The position numbers were made by a program, and so were the translations under genes. The notes under the pieces were generated by a model, which was given only the letters and a program-made list of their open reading frames with translations, was not told where the DNA came from and ran no database searches. A stretch of DNA of 64,000 nt from Acidobacteriota bacterium (lineage in GTDB: Bacteria > Acidobacteriota > Vicinamibacteria > Marinacidobacterales > Marinacidobacteraceae), in the NCBI GenBank assembly GCA_022820545.1, contig JAJEFG010000097.1:11061-75060 (forward strand), read 5' to 3'. How positions within the stretch are numbered: position 1 is the first letter of the stretch; each line of letters opens with the position of its first letter. Of this stretch, positions 2,927-39,872 are shown piece by piece.

Positions 2927-3040
2927 GAGCCGTGTGCGTCACCGGTTGGCGGAAAGCGACGCCGGTTGCCTGAATGGCGTCCCGCGGGCCTGGCTGGTAC
3001 CTTGGCGGGCCGTCCCGTCCCCGAATCGAGGAGCCTCCCC

Positions 3041-5053
3041 ATGCTCAGGTTGACGTCACTTGCCACCCTCGTCGCCGCGCTGACCCTTCCGGCCGCCGCG
3101 GCGGCGCAAACGCCCTTCCAGCCGATGGACGTGTTCCAGCTCGAGTTCGCGGCCGACCCGCAGATCTCGCCCGACGGAGCCCGGGTCGCCTACGTCCGCA
3201 CCTCCATGGACATCATGACCGACCGCCAGCGCACCGAGCTGTGGATCGTGAACGCCGACGGATCGGGCCACCGCCGGCTGAGCGCCGGCGCCTCTCCGCG
3301 CTGGTCCCCGGACGGCGCCCGCATCGCCTACGTCGAGGACGGCCAGATCCACCTCCGGTGGATGGACACCGGGGAAACCGCGACCCTCACCCAGCTTCTC
3401 GAATCGCCGAGCGGACTCCGCTGGTCGCCGGACGGGGGCCGGATCGCGTTCAACATGCTGGTGCCCTATCCCCCGCCCCGGCTCGTCGCCCCTCCGAAGC
3501 CCCCGCCGGGGGCGGAATGGGCCGATCCGCCGATCATGGAGGACCGCTTCAAGAGCAGGCAGGACGGGATCGGGTATCTCGATTTCGGCTTCGACCACAT
3601 CTTCGTGGTCTCCGTGGAAGGCGGCACGCCGCTCCAGGTGACCACGGGCGACTTCCAGCACTCGAGCCCGGCCGCCTGGACGCCGGATGGCGAGCACCTC
3701 GTCTTCTCCTCGAACCGGAACGCGAACTGGGAGCACGACTACCGGAACTCGGAGCTGTACATCGCCCGGGCCGCGGGCGGTGAGATCCGGGCGCTGACCG
3801 ATCGGAAGGGGCCGGACCACAGCCCCGCGATCTCTCCCGACGGGAGCCGGATCGCGTTCGTCGGGAACGAGGACCGGCTGCGCACCTATCAGGTCCGCCG
3901 GCTCCAGGTCATGAACGTGGACGGAAGCGGCCGGCGCGACGTGACGGCCGGTCTCGACCGGAGCGTCGCGAATCCGGTGTGGGCCGCGGACGGGCATCGC
4001 ATCTACTTCCAGTACGACGACGAGGGCAACCGCAAGGTCGCGTTCACGACCCTCGACGGGGAAATCCAGGTGCTCGGAGAGAGCGTCGGCGGACCCTCGT
4101 ACGGCCTGCCGTACGCCAGCGGTTCCTTCTCCGTCGCCCGGACCGGCGCCTTCGCGCTCAACCAGAGCCGGCCGGACCGCCCCGGAGAGGTCGCGGTCGG
4201 CGCACCGGGCGAAGCGGTGCGCCGGATCACCTCGCTCAACGAGGACCTTCTCGGCCAGCGGACGCTGGGCGAAGTCGAGGAGATCTGGTGGGACTCCTCC
4301 TTCGACGGCCGTCCGGTCCAGGGCTGGATCGTCAAGCCGCCGGGCTTCGATCCGGGGCGGCGGTATCCGTTCATCCTGGAGATCCACGGCGGGCCCATCT
4401 CCCACTACGGCGACCGTTTCGCGGCCGAGATGCAGATGTTCGCCGCCGCCGGCTACGTCGTCCTCTACGCGAATCCCCGTGGCAGCACCAGCTACGGGGA
4501 GGAGTTCGGCGACCTGCTTTACCACAACTATCCGGGCAACGATTACGACGACCTGATGTCCGGGGTCGATGCGGTCATCGCCCGGGGCTACGTGGACGAG
4601 GACAACCTGTTCGTGACCGGCGGCAGCGCCGGCGGGATCATGACCGCCTGGATCGTGGGGAAGACCGACCGCTTCCGCGCGGCCGTCTCCGAAAAGCCGG
4701 TCATCAACTGGATCAGCAAGACGCTCACCGCCGACAACTGGTTCAACTACTTCGGAAACCGCTACGAGGGCCTCCCCTGGGAGGACCCGGAGCCCTACTG
4801 GAAGTTCTCGCCGCTCTCGCTGGTGGGGAACGTGACCACCCCGACGATGGTGCTCACGGGATCGCTCGATCTGCGCACGCCGCTATCGGAGTCCTACCAG
4901 CTCTTCCACGCCCTCAAGTTCCGCGGCATCGATACCGCGGTGGTGCGCATCCCCGGAGCCTTCCACAACATGAGCCGCCGGCCGAGCGAGCTGATCGCGA
5001 AGGTCGCCAACCAGATCGCCTGGTTCGAGAAGTACCGGACGTCCGGGAACTGA
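3041..5053 (+). CDS. S9 family serine peptidase (prolyl oligopeptidase/acylaminoacyl-peptidase type) with N-terminal TolB-like beta-propeller
   Basis: Signal peptide MLRLTSLATLVAALTLPAAAAAQ with GAGGAG RBS upstream. The N-terminal region repeats SPDG.R.AY motifs. The C-terminal alpha/beta-hydrolase carries the GGSAGG nucleophile elbow. Confidence 0.85.
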   Translation: MLRLTSLATLVAALTLPAAAAAQTPFQPMDVFQLEFAADPQISPDGARVAYVRTSMDIMTDRQRTELWIVNADGSGHRRLSAGASPRWSPDGARIAYVEDGQIHLRWMDTGETATLTQLLESPSGLRWSPDGGRIAFNMLVPYPPPRLVAPPKPPPGAEWADPPIMEDRFKSRQDGIGYLDFGFDHIFVVSVEGGTPLQVTTGDFQHSSPAAWTPDGEHLVFSSNRNANWEHDYRNSELYIARAAGGEIRALTDRKGPDHSPAISPDGSRIAFVGNEDRLRTYQVRRLQVMNVDGSGRRDVTAGLDRSVANPVWAADGHRIYFQYDDEGNRKVAFTTLDGEIQVLGESVGGPSYGLPYASGSFSVARTGAFALNQSRPDRPGEVAVGAPGEAVRRITSLNEDLLGQRTLGEVEEIWWDSSFDGRPVQGWIVKPPGFDPGRRYPFILEIHGGPISHYGDRFAAEMQMFAAAGYVVLYANPRGSTSYGEEFGDLLYHNYPGNDYDDLMSGVDAVIARGYVDEDNLFVTGGSAGGIMTAWIVGKTDRFRAAVSEKPVINWISKTLTADNWFNYFGNRYEGLPWEDPEPYWKFSPLSLVGNVTTPTMVLTGSLDLRTPLSESYQLFHALKFRGIDTAVVRIPGAFHNMSRRPSELIAKVANQIAWFEKYRTSGN

Positions 5054-5117: not shown

Positions 5118-7136
5118 ATGTCCCGATTCACGCTAGTCCTCACCCTTGTTGCCGCTCTGGCCGTCCCGTTCGCATCCGGGGGCCAGACGCCGTTCCAGCC
5201 GATGGACGTGTTCCAGCTCGAGTTTGCGGCCGACCCGCAGATCTCCCCGGACGGCAGTCAGGTCGTCTATGTCCGGACTTCGATGGACATCATGCGCGAC
5301 CGGCCGCGTTCCGAACTCTGGATCGTCAACGCCGATGGCAGCGGCCACCGGCATCTGAGCGCCGGATCGTCTCCGCGCTGGTCACCCGACGGCACCCGCA
5401 TCGCGTACACGGCGGGCGGACAGATCCACCTCCGCTGGATGGACACCGGGGAGACGGCGACGCTCACCCAGGTTCTCGAATCCCCGCGCGGCGTCCGCTG
5501 GTCCCCGGACGGGACGCGGCTCGCCTTCAACATGCTGGTCCCCTACCCGCCGCCGCAGCTCGCCGCGCCCCCGAAGCCGCCCCCCGGGGCCGAGTGGGCC
5601 GATCCTCCGATCATGGAGGACCGCTTCCGGAACCGGCAGGACGGGGTCGGGTATCTCGACTTCGGCTACAACCACATCTTTGTTGTGCCGGTCGACGGCG
5701 GCACGCCGGCCCAGGTGACTTCCGGGGACTTCCAGCACTCGAGTCCGGCTGCCTGGACGCCGGACAGCCGGCATCTCGTTTTCTCCTCGAATCGCAACCC
5801 CGACTGGGTAACCGACTACCGGAACTCCGAGCTCTACATCGCGCCGGTCGCCGGCGGGGAGATCCGCGCGCTGACCGGCCGGAAGGGGCCGGACCGGAGT
5901 CCCGCCGTCTCCCCCGACGGACAGCAGATCGCGTTCGTGAGCTACGAGGACCGGGTGCGGACGTACCAGGTCAGCCGGCTTCACGTGATGAACCTGGACG
6001 GAAGCGGAGCGCGCGCCGTCACCACCGGGCTCGACCGGAGCGTCTCGAACCCGGTGTGGGCCGCGGACGGACACCGGCTCTACTTCCAGTACGACGACGA
6101 GGGCAACTCGAAGGTCGCCTTCGTGACGCTGGACGGCGAGGTCGAGGTGCTCGGAGAGAGTCTCGGCGGCACCTCCTATGGCCGTCCCTACAGCGGCGGT
6201 TCGTTCTCGGTCGCGAACGACGGCTCCTTCGCGTTCAACCAGAGCCGTCCGGACCTGCCCGGCGAGGTGGCCGTCGGCAGGCACGGCGAGGCCGCGCGCC
6301 GGCTCACCTCGCTCAACGAGGACCTGCTCGCCGGCACGACCCTCGGCGAGGTCGAGGAGATCTGGTGGGACTCGTCCTTCGACGGCCGCCCGGTCCAGGG
6401 CTGGATCGTCAAGCCCCCGGACTTCGATCCGGGGCGCCGCTACCCGTTGATCCTCGAGATCCACGGGGGGCCGGTCACGAACTACGGCGACCGCTTCTCG
6501 GCCGAGATGCAACTGATGGCCGCTGCCGGATACGTGGTCCTCTATGCCAACCCCCGCGGGAGCACCAGCTACGGCGAGGAGTTCGGAGACCTGCTCTACC
6601 GCAACTACCCGGGCAACGACTACGACGACCTCATTTCGGGCGTGGACGCGGTCATCGCCCGCGGCTACGTGGACGAGGACAACCTGTTCGTGACGGGAGG
6701 CAGCGCCGGGGGGATCATGACCGCGTGGATCGTCGGGAAGACGGACCGCTTCCGGGCCGCCGTCTCCCAGAAACCCGTCGTCAACTGGATCAGCAAGACC
6801 CTGACCGCGGACAACTGGTACGGCTACTACTTCAGCCGCTACGAGGGCCTTCCCTGGGAGAACCCGGAGCCGTACTGGCGGTTTTCCCCGATCTCGCTGG
6901 CCGGGAACGTGAACACTCCGACGCTGATGGTCACGGGAGAAGAGGACCTCCGCACGCCCCTGTCCGAGTCCTACCAGTTGTTCCACGCCCTCAGGTTCCG
7001 CGGGATCGACACCGGGGTGGTCCGGCTGCCCGGCGCCTCCCACGACATGAGCCGCCGGCCGAGCCAGTTGATGGCCAAGATCGCCAACATCCTGGCCTGG
7101 TTCGAGAAGTACCGCACGCACCCCACCACGAACTGA
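5118..7136 (+). CDS. S9 family serine peptidase, tandem paralog of the upstream gene
   Basis: Colinear with the 3041-5053 product and close to 75-80% identical: QTPFQPMDVFQLEFAADPQISPDG..., GGSAGGIMTAWIVGKTDRFRAAVS. Confidence 0.85.
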   Translation: MSRFTLVLTLVAALAVPFASGGQTPFQPMDVFQLEFAADPQISPDGSQVVYVRTSMDIMRDRPRSELWIVNADGSGHRHLSAGSSPRWSPDGTRIAYTAGGQIHLRWMDTGETATLTQVLESPRGVRWSPDGTRLAFNMLVPYPPPQLAAPPKPPPGAEWADPPIMEDRFRNRQDGVGYLDFGYNHIFVVPVDGGTPAQVTSGDFQHSSPAAWTPDSRHLVFSSNRNPDWVTDYRNSELYIAPVAGGEIRALTGRKGPDRSPAVSPDGQQIAFVSYEDRVRTYQVSRLHVMNLDGSGARAVTTGLDRSVSNPVWAADGHRLYFQYDDEGNSKVAFVTLDGEVEVLGESLGGTSYGRPYSGGSFSVANDGSFAFNQSRPDLPGEVAVGRHGEAARRLTSLNEDLLAGTTLGEVEEIWWDSSFDGRPVQGWIVKPPDFDPGRRYPLILEIHGGPVTNYGDRFSAEMQLMAAAGYVVLYANPRGSTSYGEEFGDLLYRNYPGNDYDDLISGVDAVIARGYVDEDNLFVTGGSAGGIMTAWIVGKTDRFRAAVSQKPVVNWISKTLTADNWYGYYFSRYEGLPWENPEPYWRFSPISLAGNVNTPTLMVTGEEDLRTPLSESYQLFHALRFRGIDTGVVRLPGASHDMSRRPSQLMAKIANILAWFEKYRTHPTTN

Positions 7137-7160
7137 GGCAAGGAGGAAGGGCCCGCCTCG

Positions 7161-7201
7161 GAGCGCCGGCCTCCGGCCGGCATCGCGCGGGAGCGCGAAA
7201 C
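7161..7201 (+). repeat. Type B two-hairpin repeat unit, solo copy (GAGCGCCGGCCTCCGGCCGGCATCGCGCGGGAGCGCGAAAC)
   Basis: This is the canonical copy of a unit recurring at 12306, 12462(rc), 20782, 20931(rc), 26118, 26200, 26356(rc) and 38846(rc). It sits between the S9 paralog stop and the HupE-like start. Confidence 0.65.
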
Positions 7202-7209
7202 CGGTCGCG

Positions 7210-8424
7210 ATGACGCTGCGCCCGGCCACCGTGGGTGCTGCCCGCCATGGCGCGCCGCCATGGCCGGCCCCGGTATCCTCCCGCGTGCCTTCCGCCCGAC
7301 TCGCCCTCGTCGCGGCCCTCCTGCTGGCGAGCGCTGTGACACCGCCCGGTGTCGCCCCTGCCCGCGCCCATCCGCTGGCGTTCACGGAAGTGACCCTCAC
7401 GCTGCGGGACGACGGCGCTTTCGAGGCGAATCTCATCTACGACCTCGACGCGCTGGCGCTCGGCGTGCCCATCACCACGGAGGACACGGAACTGGCGGCG
7501 GCGCTCGCGAGCCTCCCGCCGGGCGAATTCGCGGCGCGCGTCGCCAGCCTGCGGGAGCTGTTCGCGCGGCGCGTCCGGGTCCGGTTCGACGGCGAGCCCA
7601 CGCCGTTCGACGTCTCGTTTCCCGACTACGGCACGCCCCGCGCGACGGAAGCGGACATCCCGACCGTGCTCGGCGTGACGGCGCGCCTCACGGGAAGGGT
7701 CCCCGAACGCGCGTCCACGGTGGGGTTCTTCGCGTCGCGCGCGTTCGGCGAGGTCCACCTGACCATCGTCGACACCGGGCGCGCGGTGGAGGTCCGCTCC
7801 GTCCTCGAACCCGGGGCGCGGAGCGACCCGCTCGATCTCACGGGGCCGGTCTCCCCGCCGGGCCGCCTCGAGGTGGCGGCCCGCTATGCGCGGCTCGGGT
7901 TCGTCCACATCGTGCCGGAGGGTACGGATCACATCCTGTTCGTGCTCGGGCTGTTCCTGCTGAGCGCGCGGCTCCGGCCCCTGATCTGGCAGGTGACCGC
8001 GTTCACGGTGGCGCACGCGGCCACCCTGACCGTGGCGGCGCTGGGCGTCGTCTCCCTCGCCCCGCGCCTCGTGGAGCCGCTCATCGCGCTCTCGATCGCG
8101 TACGTCGCCGTCGAGAACGTCCTGACCGATCGCCTGACCCGCTGGCGTCCGGCCGTGGTCTTCGGCTTCGGGCTGCTGCACGGGCTGGGTTTCGCGGGGG
8201 TCCTCGGCGAGCTGGGCCTGCCCGAGCACGAGCGGCTCCTGGCGCTCGTGACCTTCAATGCCGGCATCGAGCTGGGACAGCTCGCGGTCATCGCGGCCGC
8301 CGCGGGATCGTTCGGGTGGTTCCGCGCGAAGCCGTGGTACCGGCGACGGCTCGCCGTTCCCGCCTCCGCGGTCATCGGGCTGGTTGGCGTGACGTGGGCC
8401 ATCCAGCGGGCCTTGAGCCCCTGA
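7210..8424 (+). CDS. HupE/UreJ family membrane protein with N-terminal periplasmic domain
   Basis: The C-terminal TM region carries HupE/UreJ-like motifs (HIVPEGTDHILFVLGLFLL, GFGLLHGLGFAGVLGE). The signal-like stretch RLALVAALLLASAV suggests the start could be internal. Confidence 0.6.
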   Translation: MTLRPATVGAARHGAPPWPAPVSSRVPSARLALVAALLLASAVTPPGVAPARAHPLAFTEVTLTLRDDGAFEANLIYDLDALALGVPITTEDTELAAALASLPPGEFAARVASLRELFARRVRVRFDGEPTPFDVSFPDYGTPRATEADIPTVLGVTARLTGRVPERASTVGFFASRAFGEVHLTIVDTGRAVEVRSVLEPGARSDPLDLTGPVSPPGRLEVAARYARLGFVHIVPEGTDHILFVLGLFLLSARLRPLIWQVTAFTVAHAATLTVAALGVVSLAPRLVEPLIALSIAYVAVENVLTDRLTRWRPAVVFGFGLLHGLGFAGVLGELGLPEHERLLALVTFNAGIELGQLAVIAAAAGSFGWFRAKPWYRRRLAVPASAVIGLVGVTWAIQRALSP

Positions 8425-10735: not shown

Positions 10736-12183
10736 TGGAGATACGACAGGCGCTGATTCTCGGAGCCCTGGCGGCCCTGGTGGCGCCCACCGCCGCTTCG
10801 GCCCAGGAAATCGCGATGTTCGGCAACACGCCGTCCCGGAACATGGTGTCCGACGAGACGGGCGTCGCCGGCGACTGGGACGTGGATACCGGCCGGAACG
10901 TCCTCTGGTCCCAACCGGTCGGTTCGCAGGCCTACGGCGGGCCGGTGGTCGCGAACGGCCGGGTCTACGTCGGCACCAACAACGAGGGACGCCGCAACCC
11001 CTCCATCGAGGGGGACCGGGGCGTGGTCATGGCGTTCGCGGCGGACACCGGCACGTTCCTCTGGCAGATGGTGCATCCCAAGCTCCCGGCCGGCCGGGTC
11101 AACGACTGGCCGATGCAGGGAGTCTGCTCCACCGCGTTCATGGAGGGGGACCGCATCTACTACGTCTCCAACGAGGCGCACGTGATCTGCCTCGACGCGA
11201 ACGGCTTCGCCAACGGCAACGATGGCCCCTTCACCGACGAGGAAGATACCGGTGAGATTGCCGGAGACATCATCTGGTCCTACGACATGATCGGCGAGCT
11301 GGACGTCTTCCCGCACAACCTCGCCACGGGATCGCCGCTCATCGTCGGCGACGTCCTCTATACCGTCACGAGCAACGGTGTCGACGAGGGACACGTCAAC
11401 GTCCCGTCGCCCTTCTCGCCCGACTTCATCGCCCTCGACAAGAACACCGGCGAACTGCTGTGGGAGAGCACCCCGGTCGGCGAGAACATCCTGCACGGGG
11501 CCTGGACGAACCCGGCCTACGCGGTGATCGGCGGCCGGGCGCAGGTCATCTTCCCCGGCGGCGACGGGGTGATCTACAGCCTGGACGCCGCGACGGGCGA
11601 GCTCATCTGGCAGTTCGACTGCAACCCGAAGGACTCGGAGTGGATCCTCGGCGGCCGCGGGACGCGCAACAACATCCTCTCCACGCCGGTGGTCCACAAC
11701 GACAAGGTGTACATCGGCGTCGGCCAGGACCCGGAGCACGGCGAGGCGCCGGGCCATTTCTGGGTGATCGACGCGACCGGCGCCGGCGACGTCACCGACA
11801 CGCACGCGGTATGGCACCGCGGCGGCGAGGACTTCTACCGCACCATGTCCACCGCGGCGATCGCCGACGGCGTGCTCTACATCTCCAGCCTGTCGGGCTA
11901 CCTGCACGCGCTCGACCCGGAGACCGGGGAGGAGTTCTGGACCTACGACACCTACGCGGCGGTGTGGGGCTCTCCCTTCGTCGTGGACGGCAAGGTCTTC
12001 CTGGGTGACGAGGACGGGGACGTCGTGGTGCTGCGCGCGGGCAAGGAACTGGAGGTCCTCGGGGAGTACAACCTCGGCGCCTCCGTCTACTGCACCCCGG
12101 TGGTCAAGGACGGCGTCCTCTACATCCTCACCCGCAACCGGCTCTGGGCATTCAAGGAAGGCGCGCAGTCCGACCCCCTCTGA
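10735..12183 (+). CDS. secreted PQQ-like beta-propeller repeat protein
   Basis: Signal peptide MEIRQALILGALAALVAPTAASAQ. Propeller blade repeats (GRVYVGT, GVIYSLDAATGELIWQF, GYLHALDPETGEEFWTY). Translationally coupled to the upstream gene. Confidence 0.7.
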   Translation: MEIRQALILGALAALVAPTAASAQEIAMFGNTPSRNMVSDETGVAGDWDVDTGRNVLWSQPVGSQAYGGPVVANGRVYVGTNNEGRRNPSIEGDRGVVMAFAADTGTFLWQMVHPKLPAGRVNDWPMQGVCSTAFMEGDRIYYVSNEAHVICLDANGFANGNDGPFTDEEDTGEIAGDIIWSYDMIGELDVFPHNLATGSPLIVGDVLYTVTSNGVDEGHVNVPSPFSPDFIALDKNTGELLWESTPVGENILHGAWTNPAYAVIGGRAQVIFPGGDGVIYSLDAATGELIWQFDCNPKDSEWILGGRGTRNNILSTPVVHNDKVYIGVGQDPEHGEAPGHFWVIDATGAGDVTDTHAVWHRGGEDFYRTMSTAAIADGVLYISSLSGYLHALDPETGEEFWTYDTYAAVWGSPFVVDGKVFLGDEDGDVVVLRAGKELEVLGEYNLGASVYCTPVVKDGVLYILTRNRLWAFKEGAQSDPL

Positions 12184-12189
12184 CGGCCT

Positions 12190-12213
12190 GGAACGCCGGC
12201 TTCAGCCGGCGCG
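12190..12213 (+). repeat. Type A hairpin repeat, solo copy (GGAACGCCGGCTTCAGCCGGCG)
   Basis: Same core as 2771-2795. Lies immediately after the PQQ-propeller stop. Confidence 0.55.
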
Positions 12214-12305
12214 CGCGGCGCCTCTCCCACCGGGAGAAACCGTCGCGATCGGTCCCCCCTGCACCCCCCGCCGGGCACGAAAACGGCGCGAACGGCTTGA
12301 ACTCG

Positions 12306-12502
12306 GAGCGCCGGCCTCTGGCCGGCATCGCGGCCGCAGGCCGCGAAACGCACGCCGCAGCCGATTCCCATGGCGTCATCCCCACCGGGAACGCCTGCAC
12401 ACCGCCCGAAACGAGCCGGAGTGGACCCCCCTCTTCAGGGAGAGGAGCGCCACCAGCGCGGGTTTCGCGCTCCCGCGCGATGCCGGCCAGAGGCCGGCGC
12501 TC
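12306..12502. repeat. Full ~197-bp type B element: unit (+) at 12306-12349, conserved ~110-bp core, inverted unit at 12462-12502
   Basis: Terminal units are inverted copies; both share the loop variant TCT/AGA. The core resembles the cores at 20823-20930 (opposite orientation) and 26247-26355. Confidence 0.65.
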
Positions 12503-12687
12503 GGAGGCGGCACCACCACAGTCTGCTGGCCAGCCCCGTACCGTTGCACTTTCATGGCAACTGGCGCACCGCGCCCGGCGCAACCCCTACGCGCACCGGT
12601 TGCCCGGCGTTCCCGCGTCCGGTGGACCCGTGAGGTCGGAAATCCAGGCAGGGCGATGCCCGTCACCACACGGGGAGCCCTCACTGC

Positions 12688-15621: not shown

Positions 15622-15667
15622 CTTCCTGTCCTCCCCCCGAGGTCCGGCCGGCCCGCCGAACCGGACG

Positions 15668-16765
15668 TCAGTAGACCCCCACGGTGGTGCCGCCCGCGAG
15701 CTGGCCGAAGGGCCGGACGCCGCTGACCCCGTCCCAGGCGTAGGGTCCCCAGGGTGGTTCCCGCTCGCCCTCGTCGCGTTCGAGGAAGCCCGGGACGAAG
15801 AACTCGCGCGTCAGCGTCGTGAGCCGGACGCGGCCGGTTTCCCCGTAGTCCACCACCTCGCCGCTGTCGGGGTCCACGACCTCCAGCACCGCGCGGGGCA
15901 TCGGCGGGTAGTAGGCGATCTTGTAGCCGTCCTCCGCGGTCGGCGGACGCGCCGGCGCGAGTCCCATCAGCGTGTTTCCGTAGGTGGGCTGGAGGAACAC
16001 CCCGTCCAGCAGTTCCTCCATGGCGAACCGCGTCCACTGGGGGGTGAACTCGGTGCCCCCCGAGAAGATGCCCCGGATGCCCGTCTCCGCCAGGGTTCTC
16101 CCCTCGTCCTCGAGCCGCAGGCAGAGCGCCTCGAGCAGCTTCGGCGTGGTGAAGAGGCACCGGATGTCGTGGCCGGCCGAGAGGACCGTCAGCGCCTGGT
16201 CGATGACGTGGGCCTGGTAGGCGAGCAGGTGCTCGGTCCAGCCCTTCTTGATCAGCTTGATGACCCAGCGGGGGTCGAGATCCACCGAGAACGCGATCCC
16301 GCCCCGGAACTGGGCGAGATGCTCCACTGCGAGCCGCAGCCGGCGCGGCCCCGAGGGACCGAGCATGAGCCAGTTGGATCCCGGCGGGAAGTGCTCCTCG
16401 GACAGCACCGCGCTGAACAGCTCGTAGTCGATCCGGAAATCGTCCACCGAGGTGCGGCTCTTCGGGATCCCTGTCGTCCCGCCGGTCTCGAAGACGTAGA
16501 GCGGCCGGTCCTGATAGGGGGCCGGAATCCAGCGGCGCACCGGACCGCCCCGGAGCCACGTGTCCTCGAACGGCGGAAACCGCTTGAGGTCGTCGAAGCC
16601 CTGCACGTCGGCCAGGGGATCGAAGTCGAGCCGCTTCCGGAAATCGAGCCAGAAGGAGCATCCCGTTTCCTCGGCAAAGTGCCAGCGCACGATGTCGCGG
16701 ACGTGTTCGTCGAGGTCGTGGCGCGCCGCCACGACGGCTTCGGAGTCTTGCAGGTCGGTTTCCAT
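15668..16765 (-). CDS. adenylate-forming enzyme, phenylacetate-CoA ligase (PaaK)/CapK/F390-synthetase family
   Basis: P-loop-like YVFETGGTTGIPKSRT and a PaaK-like overall layout. ATG at 16765 (METDLQD) with GAGAGGA RBS. Confidence 0.6.
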   Translation of the reverse strand: METDLQDSEAVVAARHDLDEHVRDIVRWHFAEETGCSFWLDFRKRLDFDPLADVQGFDDLKRFPPFEDTWLRGGPVRRWIPAPYQDRPLYVFETGGTTGIPKSRTSVDDFRIDYELFSAVLSEEHFPPGSNWLMLGPSGPRRLRLAVEHLAQFRGGIAFSVDLDPRWVIKLIKKGWTEHLLAYQAHVIDQALTVLSAGHDIRCLFTTPKLLEALCLRLEDEGRTLAETGIRGIFSGGTEFTPQWTRFAMEELLDGVFLQPTYGNTLMGLAPARPPTAEDGYKIAYYPPMPRAVLEVVDPDSGEVVDYGETGRVRLTTLTREFFVPGFLERDEGEREPPWGPYAWDGVSGVRPFGQLAGGTTVGVY

Positions 16766-16790
16766 GGTTCCTCTCGGTCGTGAACCCTTG

Positions 16791-18098
16791 TCAGGCGGCC
16801 ATCGCCCGCGCGAAGGCCGCTTCGGCGTCTTCGGCCATCCGGTCGAGCGAGTGCTCCTCCCGCACGCGCCGGAACCCGCGTTCCCCAACGCTGGCCCGCC
16901 GCTCCGGGTGCAGCACGAGCTGCGAGAGCGCCGCCGCGAAGTCCGCGGGTTCGCTGCTCTTCGCGAGCACGCCGCCTTCGGCCCGGTCCAGCAGCGCCGG
17001 ATAGGCCCCTTCCCGGGGAACCACGATCGGTGTACCCGCCATCATGGCCTCGATCGCCGGGATGCCCTTCGGCTCCGGAAACGCCGCGGGAATGCCGATG
17101 ACGTCGGCGTCGCGCAGGAAACGGATCTTCCCCGCGTGGTCCAGCTCGCCCAGATACTCGAAGGAGACGGCGGACCCGTCGGCGGCGAACAGCCGCCGGA
17201 CCTCCTCCAGATACCTCTTCCCCCCGCGACTCATCCACCCGGCGGCCCGCACCCGGAGCGGCGGCGCTTCCGGTTGTCCGGCGAGTTGGAGCACGGCGCG
17301 GGCCAGCCGGTCGAGTCCCTTCTCCGGAGCGATCCGGGAGAAGAAACCGATCGTCACCTCCCGCACGCCGGCCGCGTCCTCCACCGCCGGCGGAGCCTTC
17401 GGTTCCAAGGGATATCCCTCGGGGTCCACTCCCAGACGCACGAACGACACGCGCTCGCCGGGAATCCCCAGCGTGTCCGCCATGCCGCGGGCATGGTGCT
17501 CGGTAACCCCCACGAAGTGGTGCGCGGCGCCCGCGGCCTCCCGCATGAGGCCGAGCGCCCGGTCGCGGTCCCCGGCGGGCAGCCGGCCGAGGAACAGGTC
17601 CTCCCCGGAGAAAGTGACGACGACCGGGGCTCCGGTGGCCGCGGCCAGCGGACCGGCGAGCCCGAGGAGCAGCGAGTTGGGCAGCACCACCACGTCGGGG
17701 CCGGCGTCGCGGACGGACTCCGCGAGGGCCTCGACCGCGTGCCGGGCGGGTCCCCGCGCCCCCTCGAGCGTGGTGACGGTGAGGGGCCCGAGTTTCGCCG
17801 GGTCGTTGGACGACGAGAACCGCTCGACGAGGCCGAGCAGCGCCGGGGAATCCAGGATCCGGTCGAGTCCGGGGAGCGCTCCGAAGAGCGGCGCGGCGTG
17901 CTGCAGATACACCGTGATCCCCCCGAAGCGGACCCGGTCCTCCGAGACGCTCGTCTCGTCGGTGCGGCTGCGCTGGTAGAGGGGCACGAGGCGCACGTCG
18001 TGCCCGCGCCCGGCGAGCGACCGGGCCAGCGCGTTGTCGCGGATGCAGCTCCCGCACAGCATTTCTCCCGCTCCGGCGGTGAAACTCAGGATCCGCAC
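16791..18098 (-). CDS. glycosyltransferase family 4
   Basis: GT-B fold with the GT4 C-terminal signature (FSRIAPEKGLDRL..., EPKGIPAIEAMMAGTPIVV). GTG start. Confidence 0.8.
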   Translation of the reverse strand: MRILSFTAGAGEMLCGSCIRDNALARSLAGRGHDVRLVPLYQRSRTDETSVSEDRVRFGGITVYLQHAAPLFGALPGLDRILDSPALLGLVERFSSSNDPAKLGPLTVTTLEGARGPARHAVEALAESVRDAGPDVVVLPNSLLLGLAGPLAAATGAPVVVTFSGEDLFLGRLPAGDRDRALGLMREAAGAAHHFVGVTEHHARGMADTLGIPGERVSFVRLGVDPEGYPLEPKAPPAVEDAAGVREVTIGFFSRIAPEKGLDRLARAVLQLAGQPEAPPLRVRAAGWMSRGGKRYLEEVRRLFAADGSAVSFEYLGELDHAGKIRFLRDADVIGIPAAFPEPKGIPAIEAMMAGTPIVVPREGAYPALLDRAEGGVLAKSSEPADFAAALSQLVLHPERRASVGERGFRRVREEHSLDRMAEDAEAAFARAMAA

Positions 18099-20773: not shown

Positions 20774-20781
20774 TCGCGTCG

Positions 20782-20974
20782 GAGCGCCGGCCTCCGGCCG
20801 GCATCGCGCGGCAGCGCGAAACCTGCGCTGACAACGCTCTTTCCGTGGACGGGGCCAGGTTCCGCTCGCTTCGGGCGGCGCTGCCCCGTTCCCGGTTCGG
20901 ATCGCGCCGTGGGAATCGGTGGTGGCCCGCGTTTCGCGGCCTGCGGCCGCGATGCCGGCCGGAGGCCGGCGCTC
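20782..20974. repeat. Full ~193-bp type B element: unit (+) at 20782-20822, core, inverted unit at 20931-20974
   Basis: Same architecture as 12306-12502, but the core lies in the opposite orientation relative to the flanking units. The second hairpin of the right unit uses the stem GCGGCC/GGCCGC instead of GCGCG/CGCGC. Confidence 0.65.
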
Positions 20975-21032
20975 CGAGCCCGAGCTGTCCCCGTCATTTC
21001 CATTCCGCCGCGGTGCGCACGACGACACGTTC

Positions 21033-26117: not shown

Positions 26118-26433
26118 GAGCGCCGGCCTCCGGCTGGCATCGCTCCCCGGAGGGGAGCGAAACGCGCACCGCCACGGACTCCATTCGACGCGAGCCTCGG
26201 AGCGCCAGCCTCCGGCTGGCATCGCCGACCTCGGGGAGGGGAAAGGCACGCTGCTACCGAGCGTCATCCCGTGATCACCATCTGGACCAGCACAACCCGG
26301 GCCGCGAAGAGCCGAGCGTGGCCTCCGTTCGCGGGAAGGAGCGCCGCCGGCGCGGGTTTCGCGCTCCCGCGCGATGCCGGCCGGAGGCCGGCGCTCCGAC
26401 TGGCGCTCCGACTGGCGCTCCGGCCGGCGCTCC
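26118..26433. repeat. Composite type B repeat region: units (+) at 26118-26163 and 26200-26246, core, inverted unit at 26356-26396, then a 12-bp tandem repeat x4 (26386-26433)
   Basis: In unit 1 the first hairpin reads GCCGGCC/GGCTGGC, a G-U wobble. In unit 2 it reads GCCAGCC/GGCTGGC, a compensatory pair. The second hairpin of unit 1 uses the stem GCTCCCC/GGGGAGC. The trailing sequence repeats (t/c)GGCGCTCCG(a/g)(c/t) four times. Confidence 0.65.
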
Positions 26434-36795: not shown

Positions 36796-38841
36796 TCACC
36801 CCGGAACTCCGGGCGCCACGCTCCGGTTTGCGGCCCATGCCTCGCTCACCAGGAGCAGCAGGAACGCGGCGAGCAACAGCCACGAAGCCGCCCGTCCGGG
36901 CAGGTCCGCAGCGACGGGGTTCGCCGCCGCCTGAGCTTCCCCCTCCGCTGCCGCCACGGCCGCGATCCGGACTTCCGCGGGGTCGAGCGTTCGAAGGTCC
37001 GATTCGGCAAGGGGAGGATTCACTCCGATCTGGTGGAAATCCGCCGTCCCCGGCCGCCGGGCGCGGTAGAAGCCGGGTTCCACGAGACGAAGCGCGTCCA
37101 TGCCGTCCAGGACGGTGCGTTCCCCCGAGGGAGAGTCGGCCAGCACCTCCTCCGCTTCTCCCGCCGGACCGCTCGCCAACCGGAACGCGGCGGCGGGATC
37201 CACGCTCTCGCCGACCCGGTAGGCAATCGGAATCCGCTCGTGACCCGCGGCGAACTCCACCATCCGGTGCAGCAGCGGGACGAATGCGGCGCGCCGGGGC
37301 AGGTCGGTCCACTCCGCGTCGAGCGAGGAAGCGAACAACAGCGTCCTCCCTTCTCCCCACTCCGACTCCACCATGGCCGGCTTGCCGTCGTCGAAACGCC
37401 CCAGGACCGCGGCATCGGGTGGGATCCCGGTGAGGTCCCGGTACCGGAAGAACGCAAGCGTGCCGAGGACCGCGGAGCCCTCACCCCCGAAGGGCTCGAA
37501 GACCGGGTGCCGGGCCGCCAGGTCTCCGAGGCGTCCCGCCGGGTCGCGGTCCACGAAACCTCCGGGCACCGCCGGGGCAAACCTCTCGAGTTCCTCGGTC
37601 GCCGCCCGCGACAGCCGGCGCGGGCCGGTGGCCATCACGAGGCCCCCGCCGTCCTCGACGAAGTCCCCGAGCGCGCGGATCGCACCGGCGTCGAGGCGGC
37701 CCGGGTCCCGGACGAGCGCCACCTGGACGCCTTCGAGCGCACCGCGCACCGCGCCTTCTCCCCGGGCCGGACCGCGGTCCAGCAGGAAACCGGGGGCGAC
37801 GCCCACTCCGAGCGCCTCGCTGACGTACACCGAGGGTGGACTGCCACCGAGGTCGGCGACCCGGATCGCCGCCTCCGGGTGGATCATCAGGTGAAAACGG
37901 TCGTCGCCCGGGAAGCCGTCTTCGGGAAGGCGCACTTCGGCGGCGAGGGGTTCGCTCGGGCGCAGGACCGGGTCGAACCGGACCGTCGTCATCCGGTCGG
38001 CCGCGGCGGTGAGCGTCTTCCGGTCCACCTGCCGGCCCGAAAGCGAGAGTTCGATCTCGCCGCTCCACTCCGGAGTCGCGGGAGAGGGCGCGAAGCCCAC
38101 CTCGGCGGTCACCACGAGCTGCTCCCGGCCGTCGGACACCACCGTCACATCCGCGATCCAGGCGTTCGCCGGCGGGCCCGCGCTCACCTGCCGCACCCGG
38201 AGTTCGACGCCGGGCGGCAGGCTGGGTTGCGGCCGGCCGTCTTCGAAACCACTCCGCTGGAGATCGGAGATCAGCACCACTTCCCGGCGCCGGCCCGCGG
38301 CCCCGGGCAGCAGGCGGCCGGCGAGGCCGAGGGCGGGGGCATAGCTCGTACCGCCGCCCCCTGCGGAGAGGTTGGCCACGGCCGGCGCCAGCGTTCCCCG
38401 GTCCCCGGTCAACTCGGTGAGCGCCGCCGCCCGCCCGTCGAAGGCGACCACGATGGCCCGGTCCTCCCGGCCCAGGCCGCTCACTTCCTCCTGCGCCGCC
38501 TCCCGGGCGGCCGCCATCCGGTTCCCCACCGTCATGCTCAGCGAGCGGTCCACGAGGACCGCCCGATCGAGCGCCGTTCCTTCCCCGCCGGCGAGCGCGC
38601 CTCCGCGCAGCACCGGCTCGGCAAACGCAGCGGCCAGCAGCAAGAGCGCGAGGCAGCGGAGGATCAGCAGGGGGATGTTCCGAAACCGGCGGCGCTTGAA
38701 CCGCGCCGTCGCGCTCGTCAACTGGAGCAGCAGGAACGAGGGGAACGGGACCGGCTCGCGCCGGCGGCGGGTGAGGTGCAGGACGATGGGGACGGCGACG
38801 AGGAGGGTTCCGAGCAGGAACAGCGGGGCCAGGAAACTCAT
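36796..38841 (-). CDS. BatA-like protein: N-terminal double-TM aerotolerance-regulator-type domain plus vWA domain
   Basis: MSFLAPLFLLGTLLVAVPIVLHL is the hallmark BatA_N start. The vWA region follows (...VLVDRSLSM...). Confidence 0.75.
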   Translation of the reverse strand: MSFLAPLFLLGTLLVAVPIVLHLTRRRREPVPFPSFLLLQLTSATARFKRRRFRNIPLLILRCLALLLLAAAFAEPVLRGGALAGGEGTALDRAVLVDRSLSMTVGNRMAAAREAAQEEVSGLGREDRAIVVAFDGRAAALTELTGDRGTLAPAVANLSAGGGGTSYAPALGLAGRLLPGAAGRRREVVLISDLQRSGFEDGRPQPSLPPGVELRVRQVSAGPPANAWIADVTVVSDGREQLVVTAEVGFAPSPATPEWSGEIELSLSGRQVDRKTLTAAADRMTTVRFDPVLRPSEPLAAEVRLPEDGFPGDDRFHLMIHPEAAIRVADLGGSPPSVYVSEALGVGVAPGFLLDRGPARGEGAVRGALEGVQVALVRDPGRLDAGAIRALGDFVEDGGGLVMATGPRRLSRAATEELERFAPAVPGGFVDRDPAGRLGDLAARHPVFEPFGGEGSAVLGTLAFFRYRDLTGIPPDAAVLGRFDDGKPAMVESEWGEGRTLLFASSLDAEWTDLPRRAAFVPLLHRMVEFAAGHERIPIAYRVGESVDPAAAFRLASGPAGEAEEVLADSPSGERTVLDGMDALRLVEPGFYRARRPGTADFHQIGVNPPLAESDLRTLDPAEVRIAAVAAAEGEAQAAANPVAADLPGRAASWLLLAAFLLLLVSEAWAANRSVAPGVPG

Positions 38842-38845
38842 GCGG

Positions 38846-38886
38846 GTTTCGCGCTACCGCGCGATGCCGACCGGAGGTCGGCGCTC
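38846..38886 (-). repeat. Type B repeat unit, solo inverted copy inserted between the DUF58 and BatA-like genes
   Basis: The first-hairpin variant GCCGACC/GGTCGGC is a compensatory double change. It is flanked by a ~26-nt duplication of the BatA-like gene start (38816-38841 vs 38890-38915). Confidence 0.65.
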
Positions 38887-38924
38887 CGAAGGAACAGCGG
38901 GGCCAGGAAGCTCATTTCCTTCCC

Positions 38925-39872
38925 TCAGCGCCTTCGGCGGCGACCTTCCCGCTCGCTCAGGTAACGGAACAGCGCGAAATCGAGCGGAGTGCTGGTATCG
39001 GTCAGGACGTAGTCGACCTCCCGCCGGACGAGTCCCGCCCGGAGCGCCCGGGTGTGCTCCGCCATCGCCTCCCGGTAGCGCTCCCGGGCGCGGGTGGGCG
39101 AGAGGTCGAGCAGGGCGCCCGACTCCAGATCGCGGAACCGCGTGCCCGATTCCTCGAAGCCGGGCGCTCCGTCGAGATCGAGGTCCACTTCGGCCGGGTC
39201 GAGGACGTGGAACACCATGATGTCGTGTCCGGTCGCCAGGAGGCGGTCGAACGCCGCCAGGACCTGCTCGGGCGGCTCGTAGAAGTCGGACACCACGGCC
39301 ACGAGGCCCCGCCGTCCGAGCGCCGCCCCCAGCTGGGCCAGCGGCGGTCCCAGATCGGAGGCGGTACTCCGCTTCCGCGTGTCCGCCTCCGGTGGCGGGT
39401 CGGCCCGGGCCAGATGCTGGAGCACGGTCTCGAGGTGCTTGGCCGACGGCGGGACGAACTCCCGCAGTTCGTGGTCGAAGATGGCCAGCCCCACCCGGTC
39501 CCGCTGGCTGCGGGAGAACGCGGTCAGGCTGCCCGCCAGGAAACGCGCGTAATCCAGCTTCCGGATGCCGCGCCAGCCGAAGTCCATGGAGCGGGAGACA
39601 TCGACGGCGACCAGGAAGTTGGCGTTCGTGTCCGCTTCGAACTCCTTCACGTGGAAGCGGTCGGAGCGCGCGAAGAGCCGCCAGTCGAGTCTCCGGATGT
39701 CGTCTCCGGGCATGTAGGGCCGGTGCTCCGCGAAGTCGATGGAACGCCCCAGGAAGGTCGAACGGTGCAACCCGCTGATGAAACCCTGCACGACCATCTT
39801 CGCGACGAGCGACAGGTTCGAGATCCGGGCGAGCGCCACGGGATCGATGAATCTCGTCTGCGCAGCCGGCAT
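38925..39872 (-). CDS. DUF58 domain protein (MoxR-associated vWA-like)
   Basis: ...LHRSTFLGRSIDFAEHRPYMPGDDIRRLDWRLFARSDRFHVKEFEADTNANFLVAVDVSRSM... is the canonical DUF58 core. Confidence 0.8.
   Translation of the reverse strand: MPAAQTRFIDPVALARISNLSLVAKMVVQGFISGLHRSTFLGRSIDFAEHRPYMPGDDIRRLDWRLFARSDRFHVKEFEADTNANFLVAVDVSRSMDFGWRGIRKLDYARFLAGSLTAFSRSQRDRVGLAIFDHELREFVPPSAKHLETVLQHLARADPPPEADTRKRSTASDLGPPLAQLGAALGRRGLVAVVSDFYEPPEQVLAAFDRLLATGHDIMVFHVLDPAEVDLDLDGAPGFEESGTRFRDLESGALLDLSPTRARERYREAMAEHTRALRAGLVRREVDYVLTDTSTPLDFALFRYLSEREGRRRRR

Follow-up and report, generated by a model that had tools for sequence, protein, structure and literature searches.

Mycobacterial interspersed repetitive units (MIRUs) are described, in the part of PMC12548453 that summarises Supply et al. 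(1997), as inserting at start codons, with an internal open reading frame (ORF) coupled at a spacing of -4 nt. The passages on these elements in PMC3184786 add that MIRU ORFs overlap adjacent genes and that filled sites are flanked by tetranucleotide direct repeats. Judged by layout, the mycobacterial MIRU is the closest known analogue of a locus in a 64-kb stretch of Acidobacteriota DNA (contig JAJEFG010000097.1; the whole stretch is called the window below). Here, in a MoxR-DUF58-BatA operon, a 48-nt fragment of a GC-rich repeat lies within the start of a BatA-like gene, and the first 26 nt of that gene stand on either side of it. The structure is probably a tolerated repeat insertion whose duplicated start serves as a relay ORF, preserving the translational coupling of the gene to its upstream neighbour.

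Duplicated start of the BatA-like gene

The minus strand of the window carries, in order, genes for DUF4159, MoxR AAA_3, DUF58, BatA_N+VWA and DUF4175-like proteins. Across the DUF58-BatA junction this strand reads CGC TGA, GGGAAGGAA, ATGAGCTTCCTGGCCCCGCTGTTCCT, TCGGAGCGCCGACCTCCGGTCGGCATCGCGCGGTAGCGCGAAACCCGC, ATGAGTTTCCTGGCCCCGCTGTTCCT and then GCTCGG (Table 1). The 26-mers at 38915-38890 and 38841-38816 are identical at 25 of 26 positions, and at up to three mismatches these two matches are the only ones in the window (none expected from shuffles). ATG 38841 is the true N-terminus, since the alignment of its ORF to the Pfam BatA profile begins at residue 1. The BatA-like protein has homologues at 88-91% identity in Acidobacteriota metagenome-assembled genomes (MAGs), and the nearest relatives of the window, whose GC content is 71%, are uncultured Acidobacteriota/Vicinamibacteria MAGs.

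Comparison of the DUF58-BatA junction across 25 related contigs separates empty from filled sites. The site is empty in L009, the closest relative (92% nucleotide identity in BatA), where TGA, 9 nt (GAGAAGGAA) and ATGAGC form the context directly at the BatA ATG, as at the upstream copy in the window. It is likewise empty in L010, L012, L013, L014, L017, L021-23 and L027, in which the DUF58 TGA overlaps the BatA ATG, and in the outgroups L005-L007, which have the stop, 9 nt and then the ATG. Filled sites are distinguished by their ATG-to-ATG distance, which is 74 nt in L001 (with junctions as in the window), 71 nt in L015, 90 nt in L028, 281 nt in L004 and 437 nt in L002, L011, L018, L019 and L020 (the L002 group). 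L004 and the L002 group keep the 5' start copy and the 3' end of the unit (AACCMGC, then ATGA), with further composite elements nested within. With L009 and at least 10 other related assemblies empty, the window shows the derived state, an insertion accompanied by a duplicated gene start.

Because assembly programs can be misled by repeats, a collapsed or chimeric repeat was considered as an explanation. L001 (Logan SRR24576271), L015 (MAG JAJDVI010000033) and L028 (Logan SRR26713614) are, however, independent assemblies from different samples, told apart by lineage-specific substitutions, and recurrence of the structure in all three, with sites identical at the junctions in L001 and L015 and modified in L028, makes an artefact hardly credible.

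Initiation signals differ sharply between the two copies. In the window, the predicted duplex with the anti-Shine-Dalgarno (anti-SD) sequence has an energy of -7.4 kcal/mol at the upstream ATG and -3.0 kcal/mol at the true ATG, and the SD is separated from the true ATG by structure worth about -25 kcal/mol. The true ATG lacks an SD in every filled allele (anti-SD duplex 0.1 to -3.3 kcal/mol). In most relatives the upstream or BatA start overlaps the DUF58 stop as ATGA and has no separate ribosome-binding site (RBS); this is the ancestral arrangement, which by its geometry would itself have been coupled through the overlap. The start of the upstream ORF (uORF) overlaps the DUF58 stop in L001, L015, L004 and L028, and is 9 nt off in the window and 4 nt off in L002.

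These results bear out much of a preliminary description of the locus, which had reported the near-identical copies at 38841 and 38915, a type B repeat unit between them (its 48 nt belong to a family with nine copies in the window), a strong SD retained by the upstream copy and none at 38841. Its proposed comparison with orthologous loci has now produced insertion-free sites in the closest relative, in others and in outgroups. The displacement of an original RBS that it postulated is correct for the window, whereas in most relatives the ancestral start had none of its own to lose. Its interpretation of the structure as an insertion footprint holds for the derived insertion and the duplicated start; the further identification of the duplication as a target duplication does not. 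Elsewhere in the window no family copy is flanked by a direct repeat, and across some 400 kb of related, non-redundant sequence direct repeats of at least 16 nt flank an inserted unit at the BatA site only, so the 26-nt duplication is not a target-site duplication (TSD) typical of the family.

Table 1. Positions of features at the BatA locus, of related elements and of uncalled reading frames (window coordinates unless a contig is named)
Feature	Position	Strand	Basis or remark
DUF58 gene, upstream cistron of the MoxR-DUF58-BatA operon	38925..39872	-	Pfam DUF58 E=2.5e-44 and ORF list; stop TGA 38927..38925
9-nt spacer GGGAAGGAA	38916..38924	-	with preceding TGA, SD-like GAGGGAAGGAA before the upstream ATG
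Upstream copy of the gene's first 26 nt, ATGAGCTTCCTGGCCCCGCTGTTCCT	38890..38915	-	original start position, now opening the putative relay ORF
Putative relay uORF, 25 codons and TGA overlapping the true ATG (ATGA)	38838..38915	-	translation MSFLAPLFLRSADLRSASRGSAKPA and stop; stop at +1 relative to the main ATG
48-nt repeat unit TCGGAGCGCCGACCTCCGGTCGGCATCGCGCGGTAGCGCGAAACCCGC, 3'-truncated B arm of the GGAGCGCC family	38842..38889	-	family matches; absent from empty alleles
Hairpin 1 of the BatA-site unit	38882..38866	-	GCCGACC-TCC-GGTCGGC
Hairpin 2 of the BatA-site unit	38863..38850	-	CGCGC-GGTA-GCGCG
Downstream 26-nt copy ATGAGTTTCCTGGCCCCGCTGTTCCT, true BatA-like start	38816..38841	-	Pfam BatA profile 1-77 on residues 1-76
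BatA_N+VWA gene, 681 aa	36796..38841	-	Pfam BatA E=1.8e-12, VWA_2 E=2.9e-15
Composite elements	12302-12505; 20778-20977 (opposite orientation); 26114-26399
Copies of a different ~200-nt element	L013 8820-9020; L016 ~12080-12270; L005 ~17750; L006 ~17690		L013 copy in the MoxR-DUF58 gap
Uncalled relay ORF loci	L002 9559-10001; L004 9723-10001; L018-L020 2559-3001

The candidate relay ORF

The upstream ATG had been described as lying 74 nt away, out of frame and running into a TGA. This is accurate, but the upstream copy is not simply a dead relic, since this TGA overlaps the true ATG. The uORF in the window (MSFLAPLFLRSADLRSASRGSAKPA) ends at the TGA belonging to the ATGA of the true start. Among the six filled alleles, its length is 25 codons in the window and in L001, 24 in L015, 94 in L004 and 146 in the L002 group, none with an earlier stop; the corresponding distances (74, 74, 71, 281 and 437 nt) are all 2 mod 3. 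In the sixth allele, L028 (90 nt), a TAG in the hairpin 2 loop closes the uORF 12 nt short of the ATG, and the uORF is neither fused to BatA nor carried past the start. Four of the five distinct lengths are 2 mod 3. The spacing in L015 arose through two separate deletions, of 1 nt and 2 nt, which jointly restore the frame. The 437-nt insert has three to five stops in the two other forward frames, and after shuffling a frame stays open with P = 0.043 for L002 and 0.24 for L004. Substitutions in the ORF among four L002-group alleles show no bias towards the third codon position; the peptide is therefore not conserved, and only the openness of the frame is kept. The preliminary description had suggested that coupling might be altered, yet retention of the ATGA arrangement at 71-, 74-, 281- and 437-nt spacing argues that it was not lost and that a relay probably maintains it.

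A plausible course of events can be set out on this basis. In the ancestral operon, BatA would have been translated by termination-reinitiation at the ATGA overlap. A 48-nt fragment of a GC-rich, two-hairpin, REP/MITE-like repeat would then have entered the BatA-like gene 26 nt from its start. These opening 26 nt would have been duplicated at the same time to leave one copy on either side, and two stable hairpins would have come to stand between the initiation context and the coding sequence. The upstream copy would have kept the original context, namely the SD-like spacer in the window or the ATGA overlap with the DUF58 stop in most relatives, and because the duplicated 26 nt include the ATG, ribosomes could still initiate at the old place. 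They would translate through the repeat and melt its hairpins, although the uORF itself encodes nothing of value. Termination would follow on the true ATG, with reinitiation on the SD-less BatA gene. Such a relay would amount to two couplings in series that carry the DUF58-BatA coupling across the insert. It would account for tolerance of the insert and, probably, for the open frame kept by later nested insertions of up to 437 nt. From these sequence comparisons we infer that the relay is in use and under selection.

Several considerations weigh against the relay. Use of the upstream ATG and reinitiation at the true one are both deduced from sequence, and initiation at the main ATG could be SD-independent. 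The ATGA overlap was broken in L028. The 74- and 71-nt alleles are almost uninformative (open-frame P = 0.81 after shuffling), because open frames are common at 71% GC. L004 and the L002 group are sister lineages with nested-element arms in common, and their long ORFs are not fully independent; the joint probability of the ORF features under a model without selection, roughly 1e-3, is thus indicative only, as it assumes an independence that this partly shared history limits.

Some of these points suit a neutral relic, in which the insertion and duplication are real, the uORF is a by-product, the start at 38841 is used independently without an SD, and frames are open by chance in GC-rich DNA where stops are rare; a good SD is missing from several other gene starts of the window as well. 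A relic would not be expected to place four of five distinct lengths at 2 mod 3, to hold 146 codons open beside two interrupted frames, or to restore its frame through paired deletions as in L015, and even the L028 ORF halts short of the ATG without fusion or read-past. A neutral relic is accordingly regarded as unlikely, and the relay remains the preferred explanation.

Two other ways of reading the junction were considered and rejected. Programmed translational bypass, as in T4 gene 60 or mitochondrial byp, is incompatible with a downstream copy that has its own ATG and a BatA profile that begins at residue 1; no stop follows the take-off codon, and the 281- and 437-nt alleles are far too long. 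The same ATG and profile rule out an N-terminally extended BatA.

Gene callers leave the relay ORFs of 94 and 146 codons uncalled, and the loci look like unusually long intergenic gaps within the operon.

Repeat family and history of the allele

The inserted unit belongs to a family whose 27-nt core, GGAGCGCC-GCCGGCC-TCC-GGCCGGC-ATCGC, occurs nine times in the window where none is expected. A family unit has the form GGAGCGCC-hp1-AT-hp2-GAAAC, with two hairpins (hp1 and hp2) followed by GAAAC. Most units belong to composite elements about 204 nt long, in which they form inverted and mutually dissimilar arms, A and B. The arms measure about 45 nt, the members of a pair are about 110 nt apart, and the elements have no TSD. 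At the BatA site, by contrast, a B arm stands alone; it starts CTCGGAGCGCC, has no GTAG and ends directly after GAAACCCGC. Other copies mostly follow stop codons and occupy convergent, divergent or long intergenic regions, the unit at 7157-7205 being the sole intercistronic one. A Pfam scan of 25 window proteins, from about 39 predicted genes, found no transposase domain.

Both hairpins covary. Hairpin 1 varies by compensatory pairs (GACC/GGTC at the BatA site, CAGCC/GGCTG at 26199, GGTC..GACC in relatives), and hairpin 2 has a wholly different sequence from copy to copy while remaining self-complementary in each. RNA of the BatA-site unit folds into the two hairpins at -25.2 kcal/mol (z = -2.0); the whole region around the junction is no more stable than shuffles (z = -0.27), and the two hairpins of the unit alone stand out. 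Stable, covarying hairpins might be retained as a regulatory element that tunes BatA expression through mRNA stability, attenuation or protein binding, and REP-type elements are known to affect mRNA stability and translation (reviewed in PMC3184786). Such a role sits poorly with a site that is empty in most close relatives, with the decayed hairpins of the L015 unit (z = -0.25) and with disruption of the unit by nested insertions in L004 and L002. The BatA-site unit also has no T-run terminator, and Rfam returned nothing meaningful, either at gathering thresholds on the whole window or in E-value mode on 38700-39000, so the unit is not a described RNA family. Retention for regulation is therefore considered quite improbable. 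A hammerhead core, sought by eye, was rejected, CUGANGA being absent.

Filled alleles are scattered on a bootstrap neighbour-joining tree of the BatA gene. The window groups with empty L009 (99%) and L015 with empty L010 and L014 (100%), while L001 pairs with L028 (84%), L004 with the L002 group (74%), and empty L012, L017 and L027 form a clade of their own (100%). This scatter needs either four gains or one gain and four losses. One gain, followed by repeated precise loss through deletion between the 26-nt repeats or by allele exchange, is somewhat favoured. Identical junctions, the same 3' truncation point and the same compensatory hairpin variant (GACC/GGTC) in the window, L001 and L015 argue for a single event, as does the divergence between the window and L001 units (4 of 48 positions), which is similar to that of the gene as a whole. 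Deletion between 26-nt direct repeats that flank hairpins is mechanistically easy, which makes repeated loss easier to accept.

Codon 2 points the same way. It is AGT in all outgroups and in most downstream copies, and AGC or AAC in upstream copies; in empty alleles it is mixed (AGC in L009, L010 and L013/L021; AGT in L012, L014 and L017), as expected if different crossover points kept different copies. The downstream copy of L002 has upstream-type bases (AAC, CTC), which suggests gene conversion between the two start copies of that allele. Sliding-window identity of the window against L009, L001 and L015 has no clear switch near the junction, and vertical inheritance and allele transfer are therefore not separable by this means.

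Four independent gains would be expected of an active, MIRU-like element that inserts repeatedly and site-specifically at start codons and leaves the duplication as its own TSD. The well-supported empty sisters of the window and of L015 are compatible with this, as is the presence of the GACC/GGTC variant at unrelated loci in L024 and in the upstream region of L016; a metagenome scan for the variant gave three loci, which shows that it occurs elsewhere but is too few for statistics. A second window unit, at 7157-7205, also stands just before an ATGA start. An active element of this kind should nevertheless have left direct repeats at other copies, in the window or in the related loci, and should not lie mostly after stop codons or in convergent or long intergenic regions. 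The identical junctions, truncation and hairpin variant fit one event, and the AGC and AGT codons of the empty alleles are what deletion would leave if the upstream copy had AGC and the downstream copy AGT. Repeated insertion at this site is thus improbable. Slightly more doubtful still is the general proposition that GGAGCGCC units are an active class inserting at gene starts with target duplications of about 26 nt and building their own relay ORFs. Such long duplications could come, for example, from widely staggered breaks or from target-primed copying of a truncated element. If correct, this would describe a general way of inserting into operons at low cost, with the four filled lineages as independent hits on one hotspot.

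The origin of the 26-nt duplication can be considered in terms of frame. Insert lengths are 48, 45, 255 and 411 nt, all multiples of 3. As 26 is 2 mod 3, an ORF that ends on the second ATGA would already result from tandem duplication of the 26 nt by itself; together with inserts in multiples of 3, this makes a two-step origin possible. Staggered breaks with a captured filler fragment are another possible origin that does not fit cleanly, and the same is true of template switching at a shared CTCGG. The gene sequence TTCCTSCTCGG and the 5' end of the unit, CTCGGAGCGCC, have CTCGG in common. The observed junction is, however, 2 nt shorter than microhomology template switching would simply predict, and GCCGGCG, shared on the other side, is absent from the product. 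A 24-nt exact repeat in L017 (16930/17476) was rejected as an element footprint; it is a motif shared by the N-terminal regions of neighbouring peptidase M28 and DUF4440 genes.

Other arrangements of the family were noted in the window. At 7134-7213 a solo unit parts the stop of a peptidase S9 gene and an AAGGAGG motif from the HupE/UreJ ATG at 7210 (ATGA), and the frame that ends at the TGA of this ATGA is open through the unit back to a CTG overlapping the S9 stop (CTGA). The arrangement may be a second, weaker relay or a coincidence; a similar CTGA...TGA layout occurs at L002 15509-15577. The S9 genes at 2966-5053 and 5118-7136 are tandem prolyl-oligopeptidase paralogues with stretches of 77% nucleotide identity. 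A GGAACGCC subfamily of the two-hairpin repeat lies at 2771/2926 and 12190, and a B arm is directly abutted on the minus strand, at 26398-26433, by the 12-nt 5' end of the unit, GGAGCGCCRGYC, repeated three to four times in tandem.

A BLAST screen of the syntenic loci for other filled and empty sites of the family returned only a different MITE (a miniature transposable element with inverted repeats) of about 200 nt and a 21-nt tandem repeat. The MITE has the ends ACCTGTGGCAAAACCCACG and CGTGGGTTTCACCACAGGT, is polymorphic among relatives and has a TSD of 0-1 nt. The tandem repeat, GCCAGCCGCCGGCAGGGCCAA, has three extra copies in L005 (17027-17110) compared with L006, an otherwise nearly identical assembly, in the N-terminal region of a DUF4440/SnoaL-like gene. 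In L016 (6339-10000), a relative at 79% identity, the operon is broken upstream of BatA, with a MobA/VirD2 relaxase-like ORF and an FG-GAP repeat ORF in place of DUF58; a partial unit there, with 38 nt identical to that of the window, stands some 320 nt ahead of a GTG start. An insertion of 1475 nt, at about 15640-17115, distinguishes L017 from L013.

Comparison with known systems

The repeat family resembles REP, BIME and REPIN elements in its GC-rich imperfect palindromes, its many extragenic copies, often as inverted pairs, its lack of TSDs and its compensatory stem changes. It appears to differ in that it has no GTAG-type 5' tetranucleotide and that no RAYT transposase gene was seen among the 25 scanned window proteins. 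Its arms, about 110 nt apart in composite elements of about 204 nt, look more MITE-like, and at the BatA site one truncated arm lies by itself within what was once a coding start. Nor does the family correspond to a classical MITE or insertion sequence: a TSD is lacking in the composite elements despite their inverted arms of about 45 nt, and the BatA copy is solo and truncated, with a unique 26-nt duplication. A literature search on REP elements together with translational coupling found nothing.

MITEs and repeats fused to ORFs or inserted within them, such as the RPE of Rickettsia, Correia, ERIC and BOX (PMC3184786), are likewise small, non-autonomous, co-transcribed and translated within an ORF, and tolerate nested insertions because a frame stays open. 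At the BatA locus, however, the repeat would be translated in a separate relay ORF, outside the functional protein. Engineered bicistronic translational couplers (PMC12548453) offer a second parallel, in which a short, well-initiated leader ORF with an ATGA or TAATG stop overlapping the target start delivers ribosomes and melts structure around a start without a usable RBS. The BatA case would be a natural and accidental counterpart, with a leader made of a duplicated native start and repeat DNA.

The layout shared with MIRUs is extensive. MIRUs are short (40-100 bp) dispersed repeats placed between operon cistrons in sense orientation, as is the 48-nt unit between DUF58 and BatA. In both, the ends of the ORF overlap the flanking stop and start codons (-4 nt, ATGA type), which at BatA would likewise keep the downstream gene coupled, filled and empty sites occur among relatives, and direct repeats flank the insert. 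In the window, L001, L015, L004 and the L002 group the uORF stop and the BatA ATG overlap; in L028 the stop lies 12 nt upstream of the ATG. There are also differences. The direct repeat consists of 26-28 nt of coding sequence rather than a tetranucleotide, the start of the relay ORF comes from the duplicated gene start and not from the element, and the unit derives in part from what appears to be an unrelated family, GC-rich and with two hairpins, whose other copies have neither a start-codon preference nor flanking direct repeats. At the BatA locus it is a single unit, with no variable-number tandem repeat (VNTR) array. Given its different family, start source, direct repeat and copy placement, the BatA insertion would be MIRU-like in its working and is probably not a member of the MIRU family.

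The locus would thus provide a natural, polymorphic example of how an operon that relies on stop-start overlap takes up repeat DNA between two cistrons and still retains the downstream one, a duplicated start and an open frame ending in ATGA carrying ribosomes across a hairpin-rich insert of 48 to 411 nt. For annotation, it suggests that uncalled relay ORFs can appear as long 'intergenic' gaps. The natural allele set (empty, 71, 74, 90, 281 and 437 nt) is suited to probing the length and frame limits of termination-reinitiation. The comparison would extend the MIRU idea beyond mycobacteria to uncultured Acidobacteriota (Vicinamibacteria-type MAGs), with another repeat family and another source of the relay start.

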